64,000 nt of DNA from Escherichia phage PHB12. The translations under genes and the position numbers were made by a program. The stretch lies in the sequence record MK524178.1. The stretch is one strand, 5' to 3'. The notes below the pieces were generated by a model. It was not told where the DNA came from and ran no database searches. It was given only the letters and a program-made list of their open reading frames with translations. Below are positions 52,534-59,082 of this stretch, piece by piece (the stretch's first letter is position 1; each line of letters begins with the position of its first letter).

Positions 52534-53082
52534 TTAACGAGCCCATTTGATAATTTCTGTAATCAAATTATTACGTTCGCTTGCATTAAATCCTATAACT
52601 TTGTTAGCACCATCATGATTAAGTAATTGATACGTTTGGATTTTGTTATGAATTGCAAACTCTTCAAAATATGAAATGACTGTATTAAAACCAAATGAAG
52701 ACAAAGTAATAAGGTCGTCTTCAAAACTTTCAGTCATTTCGTTACGTGTTAAAATAATTGTGAACACATCATGGTTTTGGCAAAGACGAACATAATCCTG
52801 TTCATAAACGTCAAGAACCGAGTCCACATCTTGTCGAATACGTCCATAAACCCAGTTACTAATATATCCACGGTCTAACAGATAAATCTTAGTAGGGTCT
52901 AAATAATTCAACATCGTTTCGAAACAGCCAACTTCATTTCGAGACTTAACATCGAAACGTCCATCAACTGTTCGTTTAGGGAAATCAATCTTTACATATC
53001 TTTCACTAATTTCCATTATGTCATTAATGAAAGTTGTTTTACCAGCATTATCCGGGCCATCTACTAAAATAATTTTAGCCAT
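52534..53082 (-). CDS. Thymidylate-kinase-like P-loop nucleotide kinase
   Basis: 182 aa; Walker A ILVDGPDNAGKTT and DR(Y)-like LLDRGYISNWVYG as in dTMP/dNMP kinases. Confidence 0.6.
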   Translation of the reverse strand: MAKIILVDGPDNAGKTTFINDIMEISERYVKIDFPKRTVDGRFDVKSRNEVGCFETMLNYLDPTKIYLLDRGYISNWVYGRIRQDVDSVLDVYEQDYVRLCQNHDVFTIILTRNEMTESFEDDLITLSSFGFNTVISYFEEFAIHNKIQTYQLLNHDGANKVIGFNASERNNLITEIIKWAR

Positions 53083-53083
53083 T

Positions 53084-53983
53084 TTATTCCTCGATTATGA
53101 CATCTTCGTATTTAGGTATATTATACGGTGAAGAAATTAAAGCATTAAAGTAGATGAACTCACCAAGACCTGGATGGAATACTTCTTCAGGATTTTCGAA
53201 ATATTGAATCTTCGGCCGTCCTTTAAGAATTTGATAGTACTCAGTTTTAGTTGGTTTAAAAATTCGAATCAGTGCTTCTTCAGGATACTTATTTCTGTCG
53301 AAGCTATTATTTGGATCGGTTATATAAAGCGGTTGACCTAATTGAATTGCACATTCAACCACTTGTTCAAAACGATAACACGGGTCACTAATTCGAAATG
53401 GATGAAAAATACCATCTAGATGAATAGGAGCCAAATCACCTACAAGACGCTGCATGATGGAAGGACGTATAACTTTCTGCGTTACGATAATCTTATTACC
53501 ATCTGCACCTGCGTTAACCAGCACTTCTTTTTGACGTTCATTCAACACAGTAGTTTGAAGTGAACGATTAACAGACAACATGTCGGTTTTTAAGAATTCG
53601 TCAATATAAAAACGTGGTTTATTAGAGTCTGCAGTAATATTGAAATTGAATTCTACGTCAAAAGTGCCGTCATATCCAGTGATATCTGTGATTAGAAAAT
53701 CACAATCATAATAATCAATTAATGAATCAACCACAAATTCATTTTCAGACCAGAAATATTTACGAGTGTTATATGCGTTATCTTTATACCATAATGGAAC
53801 AAACTTAAATTCTGGGAAAAGACGTTCACATTCTTTAATATCAGATGCATTACGTGGATATGTAATTACATCACCCGGATTAGCACGGTGCAAATGAAGT
53901 TGGAAGTTGCCATCCTTAAGGATAGCATACTGTCCAGTTTCATAAGACCGCATACTCAAGATAGGTACGCGGAAAATAGCCAT
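53084..53983 (-). CDS. Hypothetical protein in the T4 beta-gt slot
   Basis: 299 aa; no motif assigned; sits between uvsX and gene 42 where T4 encodes beta-glucosyltransferase. Confidence 0.5.
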   Translation of the reverse strand: MAIFRVPILSMRSYETGQYAILKDGNFQLHLHRANPGDVITYPRNASDIKECERLFPEFKFVPLWYKDNAYNTRKYFWSENEFVVDSLIDYYDCDFLITDITGYDGTFDVEFNFNITADSNKPRFYIDEFLKTDMLSVNRSLQTTVLNERQKEVLVNAGADGNKIIVTQKVIRPSIMQRLVGDLAPIHLDGIFHPFRISDPCYRFEQVVECAIQLGQPLYITDPNNSFDRNKYPEEALIRIFKPTKTEYYQILKGRPKIQYFENPEEVFHPGLGEFIYFNALISSPYNIPKYEDVIIEE

Positions 53984-54699
53984 TAGTCAAGGAATCCTTT
54001 AACATAATCAAAATCACGTTCAAACACATGGGCACTTACCATGGTATGAGTATAATCACCAACTTCTACACCACATTCGTTAGCGATATAATGAAGTAAT
54101 TTTCCTTGGAGATAAAAATCCAACTGCATAACAACAGCACAGTTCTGAGAACGCATATGACAGTGGGTATAAAGCTTACCATCACGAATATAATAAGTCA
54201 CTGAGTCAGTACATGGATATTCAAGTGTTTCATCCGAATCAAGCAAAGCCTGATCTGAACTTTCAAGAATTTGAAACACAACTCTTCGTGAATTAGGTTT
54301 CTCTTTAAGTTCTTTTAGAAGAGTTGGTAACTGGGCCGCAATGCGAGGACCATAGAAAGTGTTGAAGTTCGCAGGCAAAGCATCTGATTTTGGTTTAGAA
54401 ATAAATTTAGCGACGTTAGGATATGCCTTAAATGCTTCTTCTGCATCAGTACCACCAGAAATCATAAATTTCCAGAAATCTTCAGCATATTCATAAGAGA
54501 TGCGATTAATACGTGGGTCGGTCATTTTGAATGATGAAGGGGTATCAACAACTACTGTCATAGACCCAATTTCATTACAACGTCCAATACGAGAGTCAGT
54601 AACGAACTGTGGATTTTCTAAAATTTCACGATTGACAGCTTTAAATGCGGATTGAAAATCTGCGGCTTTAATATATTTCATTGTGTTATGTTTTCCCAT
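53983..54699 (-). CDS. 42: dCMP hydroxymethylase homolog (thymidylate-synthase family), divergent
   Basis: 238 aa; catalytic YPCTDSV, PNSRRVVFQ, and HMRSQNCAVVMQLDFY with Asp at the position aligning to T4 D179 (cytosine specificity); I estimate about 30-35% identity to T4 gp42 by eye. Confidence 0.8.
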   Translation of the reverse strand: MGKHNTMKYIKAADFQSAFKAVNREILENPQFVTDSRIGRCNEIGSMTVVVDTPSSFKMTDPRINRISYEYAEDFWKFMISGGTDAEEAFKAYPNVAKFISKPKSDALPANFNTFYGPRIAAQLPTLLKELKEKPNSRRVVFQILESSDQALLDSDETLEYPCTDSVTYYIRDGKLYTHCHMRSQNCAVVMQLDFYLQGKLLHYIANECGVEVGDYTHTMVSAHVFERDFDYVKGFLD

Positions 54700-54978
54700 G
54701 TTTACCTCAATACAGTTATTATATACTCAATTCATAAAAGCTTATTTGAATTTCTTAGCGATGTTGATATAACGTAAAGCTTCAGCATCGATACTTCCAA
54801 GAACACTATGAAGAAATGCATCAGCGTAGTATTCTAGTTGAACAGGTTTCTTTAATCACTTTAGCCGCTTTAGTTTCAAACAGGCCCATAAGGGCCTTTT
54901 TAAGAATTTGTTCGTTGCTGTTAATTTTCATAGTCAAAATCTCTTCATTAAGTTGGTGGTTAAAAGTTTTTCTAGAAA

Positions 54979-56139
54979 TCATTCCGGGTACCTCAAAGCG
55001 TCATCAGAGTTAGTTATATCAATAATAGATATAGAGTTTTCTGCTAACCCATTTTTAGATAACTGACGTTTATAATATCTTTCACAATATGTACACGTCG
55101 TCCCGCAGATTTCATTAGCACAATCGAAATCTGGATGTCTGAACCACCTTTTTTCTAAAAAGCCATCTAACAAAGAGGTTTCAATATTTACTGTATGTGA
55201 AAACTCGGTTTCGTTTTCAAGAGTGAAAATAGTCTCTAAAGGCTTCCACAATTCCAACAAATTACCTTCAAATTTTTCAGAAGCATAAGCTTCAAGAACT
55301 TTCAAAATGTAGTCTGTGCTACCTGTACGTCCTGAAACTTTGAATTGAGTGATACCAATATCATTATAAAGTTTCAAATCTTGAGGACGAACAAAACGAG
55401 TTCTCAACCAGTTAAATGGGTCTGTATCACGAGCTTTAATACAGTGTTGCATTGGATATCCATTTAAGGATTTGGCATCATCTACTGTAACGTCGGTGCT
55501 ATGGAAAATATAGCAAGAGTCACGATAGCTACAATGTGTTGTATACCCTTTACCAGCATTAGAACAGAACTCATTTACAAGAACTTCAAATATTATATTG
55601 TTCTTATTACAAAACTCTGCTGCGCGTTTCAGGAAAGAAACTGAACGGTTCTTATGAATTCCACAGCAGACCTTTTTGATATTATATTGGTCATGCAAAT
55701 ATTTGATTTGAGTTACAGCATCAACATGTAGAATTGTTGAAACTTCAATCTCAATGTCTTTATTGACTTCACGAACAATTTCCATAACAACAGGGTTAGC
55801 GATAGTAATACGCCATACGCCTATTGACCAAAGATACTGAACATAATCCTGAATAGCTTTCTTCTTCCACTCAACTAGTTCTCTTTTTGAACCAGGATTT
55901 ATCGTGTTGAGTGTATAGTTAAAGCAAATACCTAATTCGTTACAACGTTTAACATAATCTTCTAACATCTTTTTGTCAACGTCAGGAAGCCTAAAATCAG
56001 GTCTGGCTGCTACAAAAGCCATTTCTCTTGTAGAGCCGTATACTTCGTTTATCAAGCTATTAGGATAAGTTTTATTGAGCTCTACGATTTTATCAAGAAG
56101 AGCTAAATCAAAATTCGTTCCGATTTTAAAGGTATTCAT
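54979..56139 (-). CDS. Peptidase-U32-family-like protein with Cys clusters
   Basis: 386 aa; FEVLVNEFCSNAGKGYTTHCSY resembles the U32 signature (E-[IV]-F-V-x-G-A-L-C...G-x-C); C-terminal CANEICGTTCTYC; assignment from motif recollection only. Confidence 0.45.
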   Translation of the reverse strand: MNTFKIGTNFDLALLDKIVELNKTYPNSLINEVYGSTREMAFVAARPDFRLPDVDKKMLEDYVKRCNELGICFNYTLNTINPGSKRELVEWKKKAIQDYVQYLWSIGVWRITIANPVVMEIVREVNKDIEIEVSTILHVDAVTQIKYLHDQYNIKKVCCGIHKNRSVSFLKRAAEFCNKNNIIFEVLVNEFCSNAGKGYTTHCSYRDSCYIFHSTDVTVDDAKSLNGYPMQHCIKARDTDPFNWLRTRFVRPQDLKLYNDIGITQFKVSGRTGSTDYILKVLEAYASEKFEGNLLELWKPLETIFTLENETEFSHTVNIETSLLDGFLEKRWFRHPDFDCANEICGTTCTYCERYYKRQLSKNGLAENSISIIDITNSDDALRYPE

Positions 56140-56193: not shown

Positions 56194-56580
56194 TTATAGA
56201 TTCGGTTTATATGATTTAAATGTTTCGAATTCGCCTTTATTCATAAGAGCTTTGAATTCGTCAGGACGCATAGCTTTGTCGTCGATAATCCAATCATATA
56301 CTGGTTTATGTGTTAGCAAATTATGGTACTTCAATCCAATGTTTGCCAAGTTCTGAATCAGACTTGGGAGAATGTCAATTGCTATACGACCAGGACCGAC
56401 TGACTTCATACCGCGAGCAGTGTAAAGAGTTATTGTATGCCCTGCATCATACAGGGCATTAATGGCAGACACCATTTCGACGTCTGGTTTGAAGTTCACG
56501 TAATCACGATTGTTATTCCACTCTGTTATACAATCATCGACATCAAAACAAAGATTAAGCATGTTTTCTACACGGTGCAT
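56194..56580 (-). CDS. Small HAD-like phosphatase (candidate sugar-phosphate phosphatase)
   Basis: About 128 aa from ATG 56580 (TAATG coupling); HAD-like motif I FDVDDCIT, motif II ITLYTARG, motif IV WIIDDK. Confidence 0.5.
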   Translation of the reverse strand: MHRVENMLNLCFDVDDCITEWNNNRDYVNFKPDVEMVSAINALYDAGHTITLYTARGMKSVGPGRIAIDILPSLIQNLANIGLKYHNLLTHKPVYDWIIDDKAMRPDEFKALMNKGEFETFKSYKPNL

Positions 56581-58265
56581 TAGATTCGTTCCCATTGATG
56601 AGTGATATCGCCACCGATTGGACGATAGGAAACACCAGTTTCTTTATCAGTTAGTACCCATTTACCAGGATTTTTTGTAATCAGAGTAGCCGTTACAGGT
56701 TCTGCTACGTCATAACTAATAGAGCCGTCTTGAAGTACACGGCCCATGTTACGTAATTGCTTAGTCAGAAGTTCCATACCTTTATAATATGCGGCTACCG
56801 CTTTAAGTGGATTATTCTTGAAATAACCACCTAATGCAATCCAGATAATTGCTACAGCCAAATGATGATATTCATTAAACGAACTCATCTTTCCATATTT
56901 GTAAACTAATGGATTGATGTTAATAGTCACATTACAAGTTGTTTCATCAATAGTAAACTGTCCCCAGGTCGGATTAGCGTTGAATTCATCATAACCTGAA
57001 ACAGCATAAAGCACTTTAGCTTCATCGTACAATTTTGGCCCATAAATCTTGGTTTCGCCAAAATATCCACGAGGGTCGATAAACTTAACTTCGCCGTTAT
57101 CAGTAATCATAGTATTACTGAAGTTCGGGTCACCATGAATAACAGAGTACTGTCCCTGAGAACGATTATGATAACGAATAAGGTGTTCTAAAGCTTGTTT
57201 CAGCATTGGCTTCAGACGTCCAATCTTAGTGTAGTTCACATGTGTGATTTTACCAAATGAATCAATCAATGGTTGAATGCTTTCACAACGATCAATAACT
57301 TTCGTATAGAATTCTTTAGTGAAATCACGACGAACAGTTTCAGGACTTACAAAATAAGTGTCTGTGCTGAATTTCAGTGCATCTAAAATTGCATCAACAA
57401 TTTGTGGACGAGCAAGACTCGATTTGGATTTAATATATTCAAATGCCGGCTTACCTTTAATGCGTTCCATTTCAAAGTTATTTTCATTAACAGAAACTAA
57501 CTGAGGAACTGAATCTGATTTCACTTTAAGATACCATGAAATCTCATCTTTCTGAAGAGCTCGGCCCTGTTCGGTTAATGCGAATTTAGTTACAGTTTCT
57601 TCACCAATTTCAACTGCATTAAAACTACGATTAAGTTCACGAACTTCATGAGCTTTTTCAAGTTTAGGCATATCACCTAAATCAATTAGATTCATAAGCT
57701 CTGATTTATTGAATGCGCTGCCGTAAAGGAATTCTACGAAATCACGTCCTTTGCAGTATTCATGAATTTCCTCATCAGTAGAACCCATATAGAATTCCCA
57801 GTCTTTGAACTGATAAATTCCTACAACATTACCACCTGTTGAACCTACGTTAGTGATATTTTCACCGTCGAAATTATATCGACATTCGTCACCCTTAACA
57901 TAGATTGCGTTAACATTCCAAGACCATGAGCCAAAATCAGGAATAATATCACACCAGTTAACAATTACATTATGGCCGTCTAAATCTTTGTGTAATTTAG
58001 CAAGAGCATAAGCAGAACCATACGCTTCATCAACTGTACGAATAGTCACATTGAACCCTTCTTGCTCACAATAAGCTCGAACAGTTTCAGCAAATTTTGA
58101 ATGAACTACTACAATAATTTCATCTGCGCCAAGGTCAGAATAAATTGTATACAAATTGCTCAGAATAGTGTCTTGTTTATAGTTAACAAGCACCTTAGGA
58201 ATATGATGCGTTATTGGATACAAACGAGTTGCCAGTCCAGCACCAAGAATAACAGCTTTTTTCAT
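56580..58265 (-). CDS. Bifunctional sugar-1-phosphate nucleotidyltransferase / APH-ChoK-like sugar kinase
   Basis: 561 aa; N-terminal KAVILGAGLATRLYPIT (NTP-transferase G-x-G-T-R), C-terminal VIHGDPNFSNTMI...KFIDPRG (Brenner H-G-D-x4-N and D-x-E kinase motifs). Confidence 0.75.
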   Translation of the reverse strand: MKKAVILGAGLATRLYPITHHIPKVLVNYKQDTILSNLYTIYSDLGADEIIVVVHSKFAETVRAYCEQEGFNVTIRTVDEAYGSAYALAKLHKDLDGHNVIVNWCDIIPDFGSWSWNVNAIYVKGDECRYNFDGENITNVGSTGGNVVGIYQFKDWEFYMGSTDEEIHEYCKGRDFVEFLYGSAFNKSELMNLIDLGDMPKLEKAHEVRELNRSFNAVEIGEETVTKFALTEQGRALQKDEISWYLKVKSDSVPQLVSVNENNFEMERIKGKPAFEYIKSKSSLARPQIVDAILDALKFSTDTYFVSPETVRRDFTKEFYTKVIDRCESIQPLIDSFGKITHVNYTKIGRLKPMLKQALEHLIRYHNRSQGQYSVIHGDPNFSNTMITDNGEVKFIDPRGYFGETKIYGPKLYDEAKVLYAVSGYDEFNANPTWGQFTIDETTCNVTININPLVYKYGKMSSFNEYHHLAVAIIWIALGGYFKNNPLKAVAAYYKGMELLTKQLRNMGRVLQDGSISYDVAEPVTATLITKNPGKWVLTDKETGVSYRPIGGDITHQWERI

Positions 58266-58306: not shown

Positions 58307-58450
58307 CTAGTTAAAGCATTCATACTTTGCTTGTAGTCCAATCATAATCCATCCGATTATAAGAGTCGGAATCATTACTGGAGCCGTTAAGCTCCAGTAG
58401 ATAGTCATGACAAGCATCAATAGTAAAAGTCCTATTGTTATTGCTTTCAT
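58307..58450 (-). CDS. Putative small membrane protein (47 aa)
   Basis: Manual translation MKAITIGLLLLMLVMTIYWSLTAPVMIPTLIIGWIMIGLQ...; ATGA coupled to SIS gene stop. Confidence 0.3.
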   Translation of the reverse strand: MKAITIGLLLLMLVMTIYWSLTAPVMIPTLIIGWIMIGLQAKYECFN

Positions 58451-59082
58451 TGTTCGCCTCGTAACATGGCACCTAGTGCACCGCCAGGGTGGAACTTAAG
58501 GAAGTCATTAGAGGTAAATCCACGTTCAGACGAAAGGTTGATAGCAAACGTATCGATAAGCGCTAACAACAATGTAGTGGACATGGTCGGAGCCAGAGAA
58601 TTCTCATCGACCTCTACTGCGATGCCTGTACAGAACGTATAATCAAAAAGAGCTTCGTATTCTTGTGGAATGTCTGGGTTACAATGCAACAGAATCTGTT
58701 TGACGTTCGGACGAATCATTTTAAGATGCTTAGCCACGCCTATCATTTCTTCAGTTTTACCGGAACGACTAATATGAATCAACACATCATTAGGCGCAAT
58801 GAATCCTGCATCACCGTGAGAATAATGCCCAGTGTTCAAGTACATACTCGGGATACCGAGTGAAGCAAATGTCTCAGAAGCTTTAGTTGCAATATTAGCA
58901 TTCTTACCAACACCTGTAATAATTACTCGGCTTTCATAATTACTAAGTCCAGGGCGTCGAAGAGTTTCTAGAATAGCATTATAACGAGCAGGGTTTTGAC
59001 TAATTACTTTGGCCATAGCGGCCAAAGAAGAAGCTTGTTTTATGATTGCGTCAATAGCGATAGTAATAGGAGTAGTTTTCAT
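58447..59082 (-). CDS. SIS-domain sugar-phosphate isomerase (KdsD/GutQ-like; candidate arabinose-5-phosphate isomerase)
   Basis: 211 aa; ITGVGKNANIATKASETFASLGIPS and C-terminal HPGGALG are SIS-domain hallmarks. Confidence 0.75.
   Translation of the reverse strand: MKTTPITIAIDAIIKQASSLAAMAKVISQNPARYNAILETLRRPGLSNYESRVIITGVGKNANIATKASETFASLGIPSMYLNTGHYSHGDAGFIAPNDVLIHISRSGKTEEMIGVAKHLKMIRPNVKQILLHCNPDIPQEYEALFDYTFCTGIAVEVDENSLAPTMSTTLLLALIDTFAINLSSERGFTSNDFLKFHPGGALGAMLRGEQ

Follow-up and report, generated by a model that had tools for sequence, protein, structure and literature searches.

Among the U32-family proteins of Escherichia coli, RlhA makes 5-hydroxycytidine at position 2501 of 23S rRNA and TrhP makes 5-hydroxyuridine in tRNA (ho5U34). 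Both require prephenate and iron-sulfur (Fe-S) chemistry, as does UbiU-V, for which prephenate is the proven oxygen donor (PNAS 2024). For the tRNA modification, aerobes have only TrhO, anaerobes only TrhP and facultative organisms both (Sakai et al.). In phage DNA, an oxygen-dependent route to a 5-hydroxypyrimidine has been described for RB69, whose DNA is reported to carry arabinosylated 5-hydroxycytosine (5hoC) alone besides A, G and T. The thymidylate synthase (ThyA) homologue gp48 makes 5-hydroxy-dCMP with flavin and molecular O2, as established by 18O2 labelling, and roles in supplying the sugar are assigned to the SIS isomerase gp55, the kinase/uridylyltransferase gp52:53 and the HAD phosphatase gp51 (Lee et al., NAR 2026, PMC13326640). 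A further gene product, gp50, occurs in that paper solely in Table 1, as 'Sugar or heterocycle reductase', and the paper does not mention U32, RlhA, TrhP, prephenate or chorismate. Here we examine the gp50 orthologue of Escherichia phage PHB12 (MK524178.1), in a stretch of 64,000 nucleotides (the window) whose DNA is that of a Mosigvirus, an RB69-like T-even phage. From comparative genomics we propose, with a probability of roughly 0.6, that this U32 protein is a prephenate-dependent, O2-independent pyrimidine-C5 hydroxylase that would supply 5hoC under anoxia. It is more readily understood as a second way to the same C5 hydroxylation, one that does without O2, than as the extra chemical step on base or sugar that the initial annotation of the locus had raised.

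A divergent U32 protein with ten invariant cysteines

The predicted open reading frame (ORF) of 386 residues is present and uninterrupted on the minus strand (Table 1), and 383 of its 386 residues are identical to those of RB69 gp50/ORF050c; the DNA has 181 near-identical matches among phage records. GenBank labels it 'hypothetical' or 'peptidase U32', PHROG 5757 labels it 'peptidase', and in the BASEL phages it is a 'putative enzyme involved in UDP-arabinose biosynthesis'. The gene is under strong purifying selection within Mosigvirus, with 21 synonymous and 1 nonsynonymous differences from Bas47, 30 and 1 from another Mosigvirus, and a dN/dS of ~0.01 in these comparisons (Entb_45 was excluded because of a register shift).

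The U32 assignment, initially made from a motif, holds at the profile level. Pfam PF01136 (Peptidase_U32) matched residues 94-286 with 42.4 bits against a gathering score of 22.4 (E=6.3e-11), and an hhalign comparison of the phage family (47 sequences, 48-100% identity) with E. coli RlhA, TrhP, UbiU and UbiV gave a probability of 96.8% (E=2.3e-10, 217 columns). The AlphaFold2 model (pLDDT 92.5, pTM 0.91) has eight beta-strands alternating with helices, that is, the eight beta-alpha units of a TIM barrel. Its best Foldseek match in the PDB was the U32 structure 5D88 (E=7.4e-8, TM(target) 0.70), the other matches being generic TIM barrels. Although its membership of the family is genuine, the phage-borne protein is highly divergent and branches deeply. 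In NCBIfam the protein matched only UbiU (NF047963), weakly and below the equivalog level (19.4 bits, cut-off 440). The features of the RlhA group were likewise missing, PF01136 being the sole Pfam domain with neither DUF3656 nor a match to the NCBIfam RlhA model, and a PDB sequence search with the protein and the family profile returned no U32 match, only spurious weak ones.

Both motifs cited initially exist in the protein (FEVLVNEFCSNAGKGYTTHCSY from residue 184 and CANEICGTTCTYC from residue 340); the register of the first was offset, the canonical Cys pair aligning by hhalign with C203/C209 and not with C192/C203. In the same alignment E185, C203 and C209 fall on RlhA E161, C169 and C176, residues that, like their TrhP equivalents, are essential (RlhA and TrhP studies). 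Across the 47 sequences, C203 and C209 never vary and conservation of E185 is at least 90%; C192 lies within a clade-specific 10-residue insertion. Ten cysteines (158, 177, 192, 203, 209, 233, 340, 345, 349 and 352) are invariant down to 48% identity, a number that would be enough for two metal or Fe-S centres; the putative ligands are given in Table 1. The C-terminal Cys cluster noted at the outset proved to be a CX4CX3CX2C tail with all four residues invariant across the family, and by analogy it recalls the essential C-terminal cysteines C580 and C611 of RlhA.

Linkage to prephenate synthesis and the position of the putative hydroxylase gene

Adjacency of genes for chorismate mutase (CM) or DAHP synthase (DAHPS) can serve as a genomic proxy for a prephenate requirement. 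The gene following U32 in Kanagawavirus Entb_45 and Marfavirus PWKp16 encodes an AroQ chorismate mutase of 79-81 residues (Pfam CM_2, 40.9 and 39.5 bits, respectively; gathering score 27), with a 4-nt overlap between its start and the U32 stop in Entb_45. A tblastn search found CM in 51 phage records from ~12 host genera, comprising phages of Klebsiella, Serratia, Yersinia, Enterobacter, Edwardsiella, Erwinia, Pectobacterium, Kosakonia, Providencia, Morganella and Shewanella as well as E. coli phage EcS1, and in the records listed CM lay in the neighbourhood of U32 and the ThyA homologue. Among 68 loci centred on the ThyA homologue, CM was present in 14 of the 16 with U32 and in none of the 52 without it (Fisher p ~1e-12, phylogeny uncorrected). 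In Shewanella phage Thanatos-1 (TH1_065/TH1_066, L082:8151-9541), the U32-CM pair stands after the kinase gene instead of before the ThyA homologue, and since it has been relocated as a pair it behaves as a two-gene cassette; TH1_065 was modelled in the Thanatos paper.

In Mosigvirus the slot that CM occupies in other genera is taken by ORF049 (79 amino acids). We considered whether ORF049 might be a degenerate chorismate mutase and rejected this possibility, as it has no Pfam or BLAST similarity to one and PM2/TG1-like phages carry it alongside a true CM. This coexistence would mean that CM was lost from Mosigvirus, which would then depend on the host's PheA/TyrA.

The CM link recurs independently in distant homologues (45-56% identity) on viral contigs, many of 130-294 kb. 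We analysed 39 distant loci, or 37 clusters when de-replicated at 90% identity. CM, a DAHPS-CM fusion or DAHPS lies beside U32 at 13 of the 39 loci and in 10 of the 37 clusters. Stand-alone CM is directly downstream of U32 at L051, L053 and L056 (Pfam) and at L057, L061 and L062 (local profile), the fusions are at L045:8411-9433, L047:9-971, L048:7302-8357, L049:8332-9387 and L059:11079-12197, and DAHPS alone is at L005 and L034. The two domains were searched with separate profiles and confirmed with Pfam, joint iterated profiles having merged through the fusions, and all Pfam-scanned cases were above gathering thresholds. An alternative identity for the DAHP_synth_1 neighbour, an arabinose-5-phosphate-using KDO8P synthase, was rejected: the L005 protein scored 237 bits as DAHPS and 63 as KDO8P synthase, and several copies are fused to CM. 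As auxiliary metabolic genes of the shikimate pathway, the DAHPS-CM fusions are, as far as we found, undiscussed for phages. At the jumbo-phage locus L051, an ORF of 82-84 amino acids without a Pfam match lies directly upstream of U32 (L051:9645-9893), with equivalents at L053, L056 and L059, and could be an accessory factor. RimK-like ATP-grasp and NlpC-P60 proteins are encoded a few kb away at the same four loci.

The distant clusters, mostly from obligate anaerobes, also suggest where the U32 protein acts. Gene order in the window is U32, ORF049, the ThyA homologue, the glycosyltransferase (GT) gp46:47 and the Tmk-like kinase gp45; in the distant phages it is Tmk-like kinase, GT299-family DNA glycosyltransferase and U32. 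The GT is directly upstream of U32, ~0.9-1.0 kb away, at nine distant loci, and GT and kinase occur together in 24 of the 37 clusters. A GT299-family enzyme also accompanies the ThyA homologue at 47 of the 68 loci centred on the latter, including RL38J1 gp215 ('galactosyltransferase 1'). No ThyA of the 5-hydroxy-dCMP synthase type was found within +-10 kb of U32 in any of the 37 distant clusters, the sole ThyA nearby (L036) being a canonical thymidylate synthase (244 bits, L143/D169/N177), and a profile scan of the viral collection recovered the ThyA homologue on 62 contigs, including all 15 T4-like contigs with U32 and none of the 33 distant ones. For example, L005 carries an arabinosylation set (GT, SIS, NTP-transferase/kinase, U32 and DAHPS) with U32 at the position of the ThyA homologue, and at L002 and L015 a dCMP deaminase-U32 pair is accompanied by a thymidylate kinase and UDG-PolIII-alpha.

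An uncultured phage carries, at L017:5777-14179, genes for a Gly_transf_sug protein, a Tmk-like kinase, a GT299-family GT, U32, a TAGT glycosyltransferase, a dUTPase/DCD protein and UDP-galactopyranose mutase. Judged by gene content, this looks like a galactofuranose-type base hypermodification cluster in which U32 replaces the ThyA homologue. In cellular genomes of obligate anaerobes (L077:3044-7137 of Phocaeicola faecalis, L003:5135-9098 and L004), U32 belongs to a cassette with GP88 (PF17338), a methyltransferase, fused to guanylate kinase at L077, and a ~266-aa protein. At L003, U32 is followed by NT5C, PnuC, dNK, a radical SAM-SPASM protein, a second U32-like gene and a nucleoside deoxyribosyltransferase. 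This cassette may carry out hydroxylation and O-methylation of a nucleotide; PADLOC did not identify it as a defence system.

U32 is optional among phages with this cluster: the SIS, NTP-transferase/kinase, HAD, ThyA-homologue, GT and kinase genes are present and U32 is absent in Dhakavirus (VR5, dhabil), Acinetobacter phage Maestro and Pseudomonas phage PspYZU05, and relatives in Rhizobium phages that keep the rest of the cluster likewise are without it. Since arabinosyl-5hoC is reported for phages without U32, Maestro and DLP3 among them (Lee et al., PMC13326640), U32 is not needed for UDP-arabinose or for the modification under aerobic laboratory conditions, and an extra chemical step is not favoured. 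U32 was present in 221 phage records, the hosts of which are all Enterobacterales or Shewanella, and the ThyA homologue in 373, including 57 Acinetobacter and 20 Rhizobium phages, both hosts being aerobes. The 11 genome bins carrying the U32 clade (Erysipelotrichales, Oscillospiraceae, Gastranaerophilaceae, two of Romboutsia, colon Clostridia, Phocaeicola faecalis, Angelakisella and three others) are mostly obligate gut anaerobes; CM or DAHPS-CM occurs in four of them and the ThyA homologue in none. Three classes of phage, with the O2-dependent enzyme only, with both or with U32 only, mirror the TrhO/TrhP distribution.

Proposed function and alternatives

We infer the catalytic activity, substrate, Fe-S binding and physiological role of the phage U32 protein from these comparisons. 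By the scheme proposed for UbiU-V (PNAS 2024), the Fe-S enzyme would oxidize the pyrimidine ring, and the oxidized ring would be quenched by hydroxide from the decarboxylation of prephenate, which would serve as oxygen donor in place of O2. The substrate would most likely be dCMP or another deoxycytidine form, and the product 5-hydroxy-dCMP or a related compound, as from gp48; as to whether the substrate is dCMP, dCTP or DNA, a mononucleotide is favoured because a nucleotide kinase is recurrently adjacent. From there on, the dedicated kinase, polymerase and arabinosyltransferases would work as they do aerobically. Mosigvirus would draw its prephenate from host PheA/TyrA, and most other lineages from phage CM, with or without DAHPS. 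In enterobacterial T4-like phages, gp48 and U32 would form an aerobic/anaerobic pair giving modified DNA in the anoxic gut, and in phages of obligate anaerobes U32 would be the only hydroxylase. That the virus-borne clade as a whole is an O2-independent, prephenate-dependent deoxycytidylate C5-hydroxylase, one of two routes in enterobacterial phages and the sole route in many anaerobe phages, is a wider claim that we make tentatively, at somewhat less than even odds. The suggestion in the initial annotation of an O2-independent Fe-S hydroxylase acting on base or sugar therefore survives in part: residues essential in RlhA and TrhP are present and the genomic context points to the base, and a role on the sugar is disfavoured.

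Several observations weigh against this proposal. The family hidden Markov model (HMM) scored at most 13 bits on each of RlhA, TrhP, UbiU and UbiV (8.8 bits for RlhA and 12.8 for TrhP), so that every E. coli paralogue is equally distant from the clade. The literal U32 signature with which the motif had been compared, E-x-F-x2-G-[SA]-[LIVM]-C-x4-G-x-C, has no regular-expression match in the phage protein; RlhA, TrhP and UbiU match this PROSITE-type pattern and UbiV does not. Nor is the canonical four-Cys [4Fe-4S] spacing, CX6CX15-16CX3-4C, kept, the phage protein having C192-X10-C203-X5-C209-X23-C233; the ten invariant cysteines would be sufficient in number as putative Fe-S ligands. Mosigvirus, including the window, has no phage chorismate mutase. 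The host-oxygen correlation comprises few independent lineages and ignores kinship, the E. coli Dhakaviruses without U32 imply that a facultative host does not require it, and the absence of a ThyA-type hydroxylase from distant clusters extends over +-10 kb and a pattern-limited contig scan. In vitro reconstitution is still awaited for every U32 protein (PNAS 2024 paper), so that 'hydroxylase' is an inference for RlhA and TrhP themselves. Finally, at ~10-13 distant loci U32 lies 1-4 kb from SIS and NTP-transferase/kinase genes for sugar activation.

Linkage to CM supports the chemistry only and not the substrate, and a prephenate-dependent U32 hydroxylase might act instead on host tRNA or rRNA, cytosine in DNA, dUMP or a quinone. 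The characterized U32 hydroxylases all act on RNA or ubiquinone precursors, and the dCMP deaminase or dUTPase/DCD neighbours at some distant loci would fit uracil. We nevertheless regard these substrates as unlikely, because the protein has neither the extra domains of RlhA (DUF3656) and TrhP nor an NCBIfam equivalog, the host already has RlhA, TrhP and UbiUV, and the gene is always within modules of nucleotide metabolism or DNA glycosylation, beside a nucleotide kinase and a DNA glycosyltransferase. In addition, the base composition reported for RB69 DNA includes no hydroxylated base besides arabinosylated 5hoC.

The labels of Lee et al. and of the BASEL phages would place U32 in the sugar branch, modifying arabinose-5-phosphate, UDP-arabinose or a related sugar. 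Its position beside the HAD phosphatase and near the SIS and NTP-transferase/kinase genes, together with the proximity to sugar-activation genes at distant loci, would fit such a role, which we consider quite improbable, since Maestro, DLP3, PspYZU05 and Dhakavirus keep the three sugar genes without U32 and such phages are reported to make arabinosyl-5hoC. UDP-arabinose formation is moreover ascribed to the AfhE/AfhF analogues alone. The kinase-GT-U32 trios and dCMP deaminase-U32 pairs have no genes for sugar activation, and U32 is also present in the galactofuranose-type locus. A sugar role would also leave the exclusive coupling to CM and DAHPS unexplained, and we know of no U32 member that acts on sugars. 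A collagenase-type U32 peptidase, the annotation given in most GenBank records and in PHROG 5757, is suggested by the family name only and is very improbable, given that no proteolytic mechanism is known in the family, that its characterized members are hydroxylation factors, and that the ten invariant cysteines, the CM coupling and the nucleotide context have no proteolytic rationale.

The C5 hydroxylase reading would account for a discrepancy in the biology of these phages: the known 5hoC pathway needs O2, yet they infect gut bacteria largely without oxygen, and an O2-independent hydroxylase would explain full DNA modification in the anoxic gut. Full modification matters because, according to Table 1 of Lee et al. 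(PMC13326640), RB69-type phages encode a dCTPase, so that unmodified dCTP offers no fallback. If the reading is correct, prephenate-dependent U32 hydroxylation extends from RNA and quinones to DNA precursors and viruses, phages rewire host shikimate metabolism through DAHPS and CM auxiliary genes for the sake of an oxygen atom, and there is a reason for phage CM and DAHPS genes. Glycosylated 5-hydroxypyrimidine DNA would be widespread in phages of anaerobes, jumbo phages included, as a large hidden set of hypermodified genomes. The protein would be the first of the U32 hydroxylases to act on a small soluble substrate, and a compact enzyme for the first in vitro reconstitution of a U32 protein. 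The DNA modification of therapeutic Mosigvirus-type phages may also differ between aerobic production and the anoxic gut, and with it their sensitivity to restriction, CRISPR and type IV systems. The gene itself is already known, annotated as a U32 peptidase with a function either not assigned or guessed to concern sugar, and that function is undiscussed in Lee et al. 2026 (PMC13326640), the Thanatos paper and the 2018 RB69 paper. A full-text literature search, with He et al. 2026 and Mahler et al. 2025 outside its scope, found no paper linking U32, prephenate or chorismate mutase and phage hydroxycytosine, and neither the CM/DAHPS links nor displacement of a ThyA-type hydroxylase nor the anaerobic rationale seems to have been published so far.

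The cluster in the window and its relation to known systems

As first described, the U32 gene lies between a ThyA homologue and sugar-nucleotide genes (Table 1). The former, initially taken for a dCMP hydroxymethylase, is instead a 5-hydroxy-dCMP synthase: it is 98.7% identical to RB69 gp48 and has L143E/D169N/N177D, matching the published signature (D169N was read ungapped, since a MAFFT gap hides it in gp48). Of the hallmarks of this enzyme (ThyA fold, Cys146, D169N/N177D), the U32 protein has none, its fold being unrelated and the signature residing in the neighbour.

Table 1. Coordinates of the U32 gene, its motifs and the neighbouring genes in the window
Feature	Coordinates	Strand	Basis
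U32-family ORF (386 aa), RB69 gp50/ORF050c orthologue	54979..56139	(-)	Uninterrupted ORF; Pfam PF01136; identity to RB69
Core U32 motif (E185, C192, C203, C209, C233), putative Fe-S ligands and catalytic Glu	55441..55587	(-)	hhalign; invariant columns; essentiality in RlhA/TrhP
C-terminal CX4CX3CX2C (C340, C345, C349, C352), putative second metal/Fe-S site	55084..55122	(-)	All four Cys invariant
Small ORF, RB69 ORF049c homologue	54742..54982	(-)	ATG overlaps U32 stop codon
ThyA homologue, flavin/O2-dependent 5-hydroxy-dCMP synthase, RB69 gp48 orthologue	53983..54699	(-)	235/238 residues identical to gp48
DNA glycosyltransferase (RB69 gp46:47), predicted arabinosyltransferase 1 on 5hoC	53084..53983	(-)	Synteny with ORF047c/046c; Lee et al. 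Table 1
Thymidylate-kinase-like nucleotide kinase (RB69 gp45)	52534..53082	(-)	178/182 residues identical to gp45; Lee et al. Table 1
HAD-type phosphatase (RB69 gp51; AfhF analogue, Araf-1,5-P2 to Araf-1-P)	56194..56595	(-)	
Bifunctional NTP-transferase/kinase (RB69 gp52:53; AfhE analogue), UDP-arabinose	56580..58265	(-)	Pfam NTP_transferase and weak kinase matches
SIS-domain arabinose-5-phosphate isomerase (RB69 gp55)	58447..59082	(-)	Pfam SIS 41.2 bits; 209/211 residues identical to gp55

The glycosyltransferase (299 amino acids) and the NTP-transferase/kinase (561 amino acids) are single intact ORFs in the window. Both are split in the RB69 reference record (ORF046c/047c and ORF052c/053c), which fits the statement of sequencing errors by Lee et al. 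(PMC13326640). Relative to Bas47 and RB69, the ORF049c homologue is frameshifted by a 1-nt insertion in an A-run (~54842-54845), leaving 53 amino acids (54821-54982); the insertion may reflect either an error in sequencing or a genuine inactivation. A promoter/terminator scan gave 25 matches where 28.2 were expected, and a PADLOC scan for defence systems found nothing.

Of the characterized systems, RlhA (YdcP) resembles the phage protein in its U32 core, in the essential Glu and two Cys and in having further C-terminal Cys, and its O2-independent C5 hydroxylation of cytosine is the chemistry proposed here for the phage enzyme. RlhA differs in its length of 653 amino acids, in DUF3656, which the 386-residue phage protein lacks, and in binding pre-50S particles; it acts on rRNA, whereas the proposed phage substrate is a deoxynucleotide or DNA. 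The phage protein in turn has the 10-residue insertion with C192, CX5C rather than CX6C, and the compact CX4CX3CX2C tail. UbiU-UbiV are likewise U32 Fe-S proteins and an anaerobic counterpart of the flavin/O2 hydroxylases UbiI/H/F, but they form a heterodimer with a different pattern of Cys ligands that acts on a lipid substrate with the help of UbiT. Mk0906, the Methanopyrus U32 protein of PDB 5D88, has 247 residues and is 11% identical to the phage protein.

RB69 gp48 and DLP3 gp80 share with the phage U32 protein the proposed product and the partners (a GT299-family GT and a Tmk-like kinase), the ThyA homologue lying ~280 nt from U32. Having a thymidylate-synthase fold and using FMN and O2, gp48 would be a functional analogue of the U32 protein and not a member of its family. 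A parallel in logic is the TrhO/TrhP pair, in which we propose that O2-dependent TrhO corresponds to gp48 and prephenate-dependent TrhP, itself a U32 protein, to gp50, each pair making the same 5-hydroxypyrimidine. The substrates differ, as does the O2-dependent partner, which is a rhodanese in TrhO and a ThyA-fold flavoenzyme in gp48, and unlike TrhO and TrhP, the phage genes are adjacent in a single cluster.

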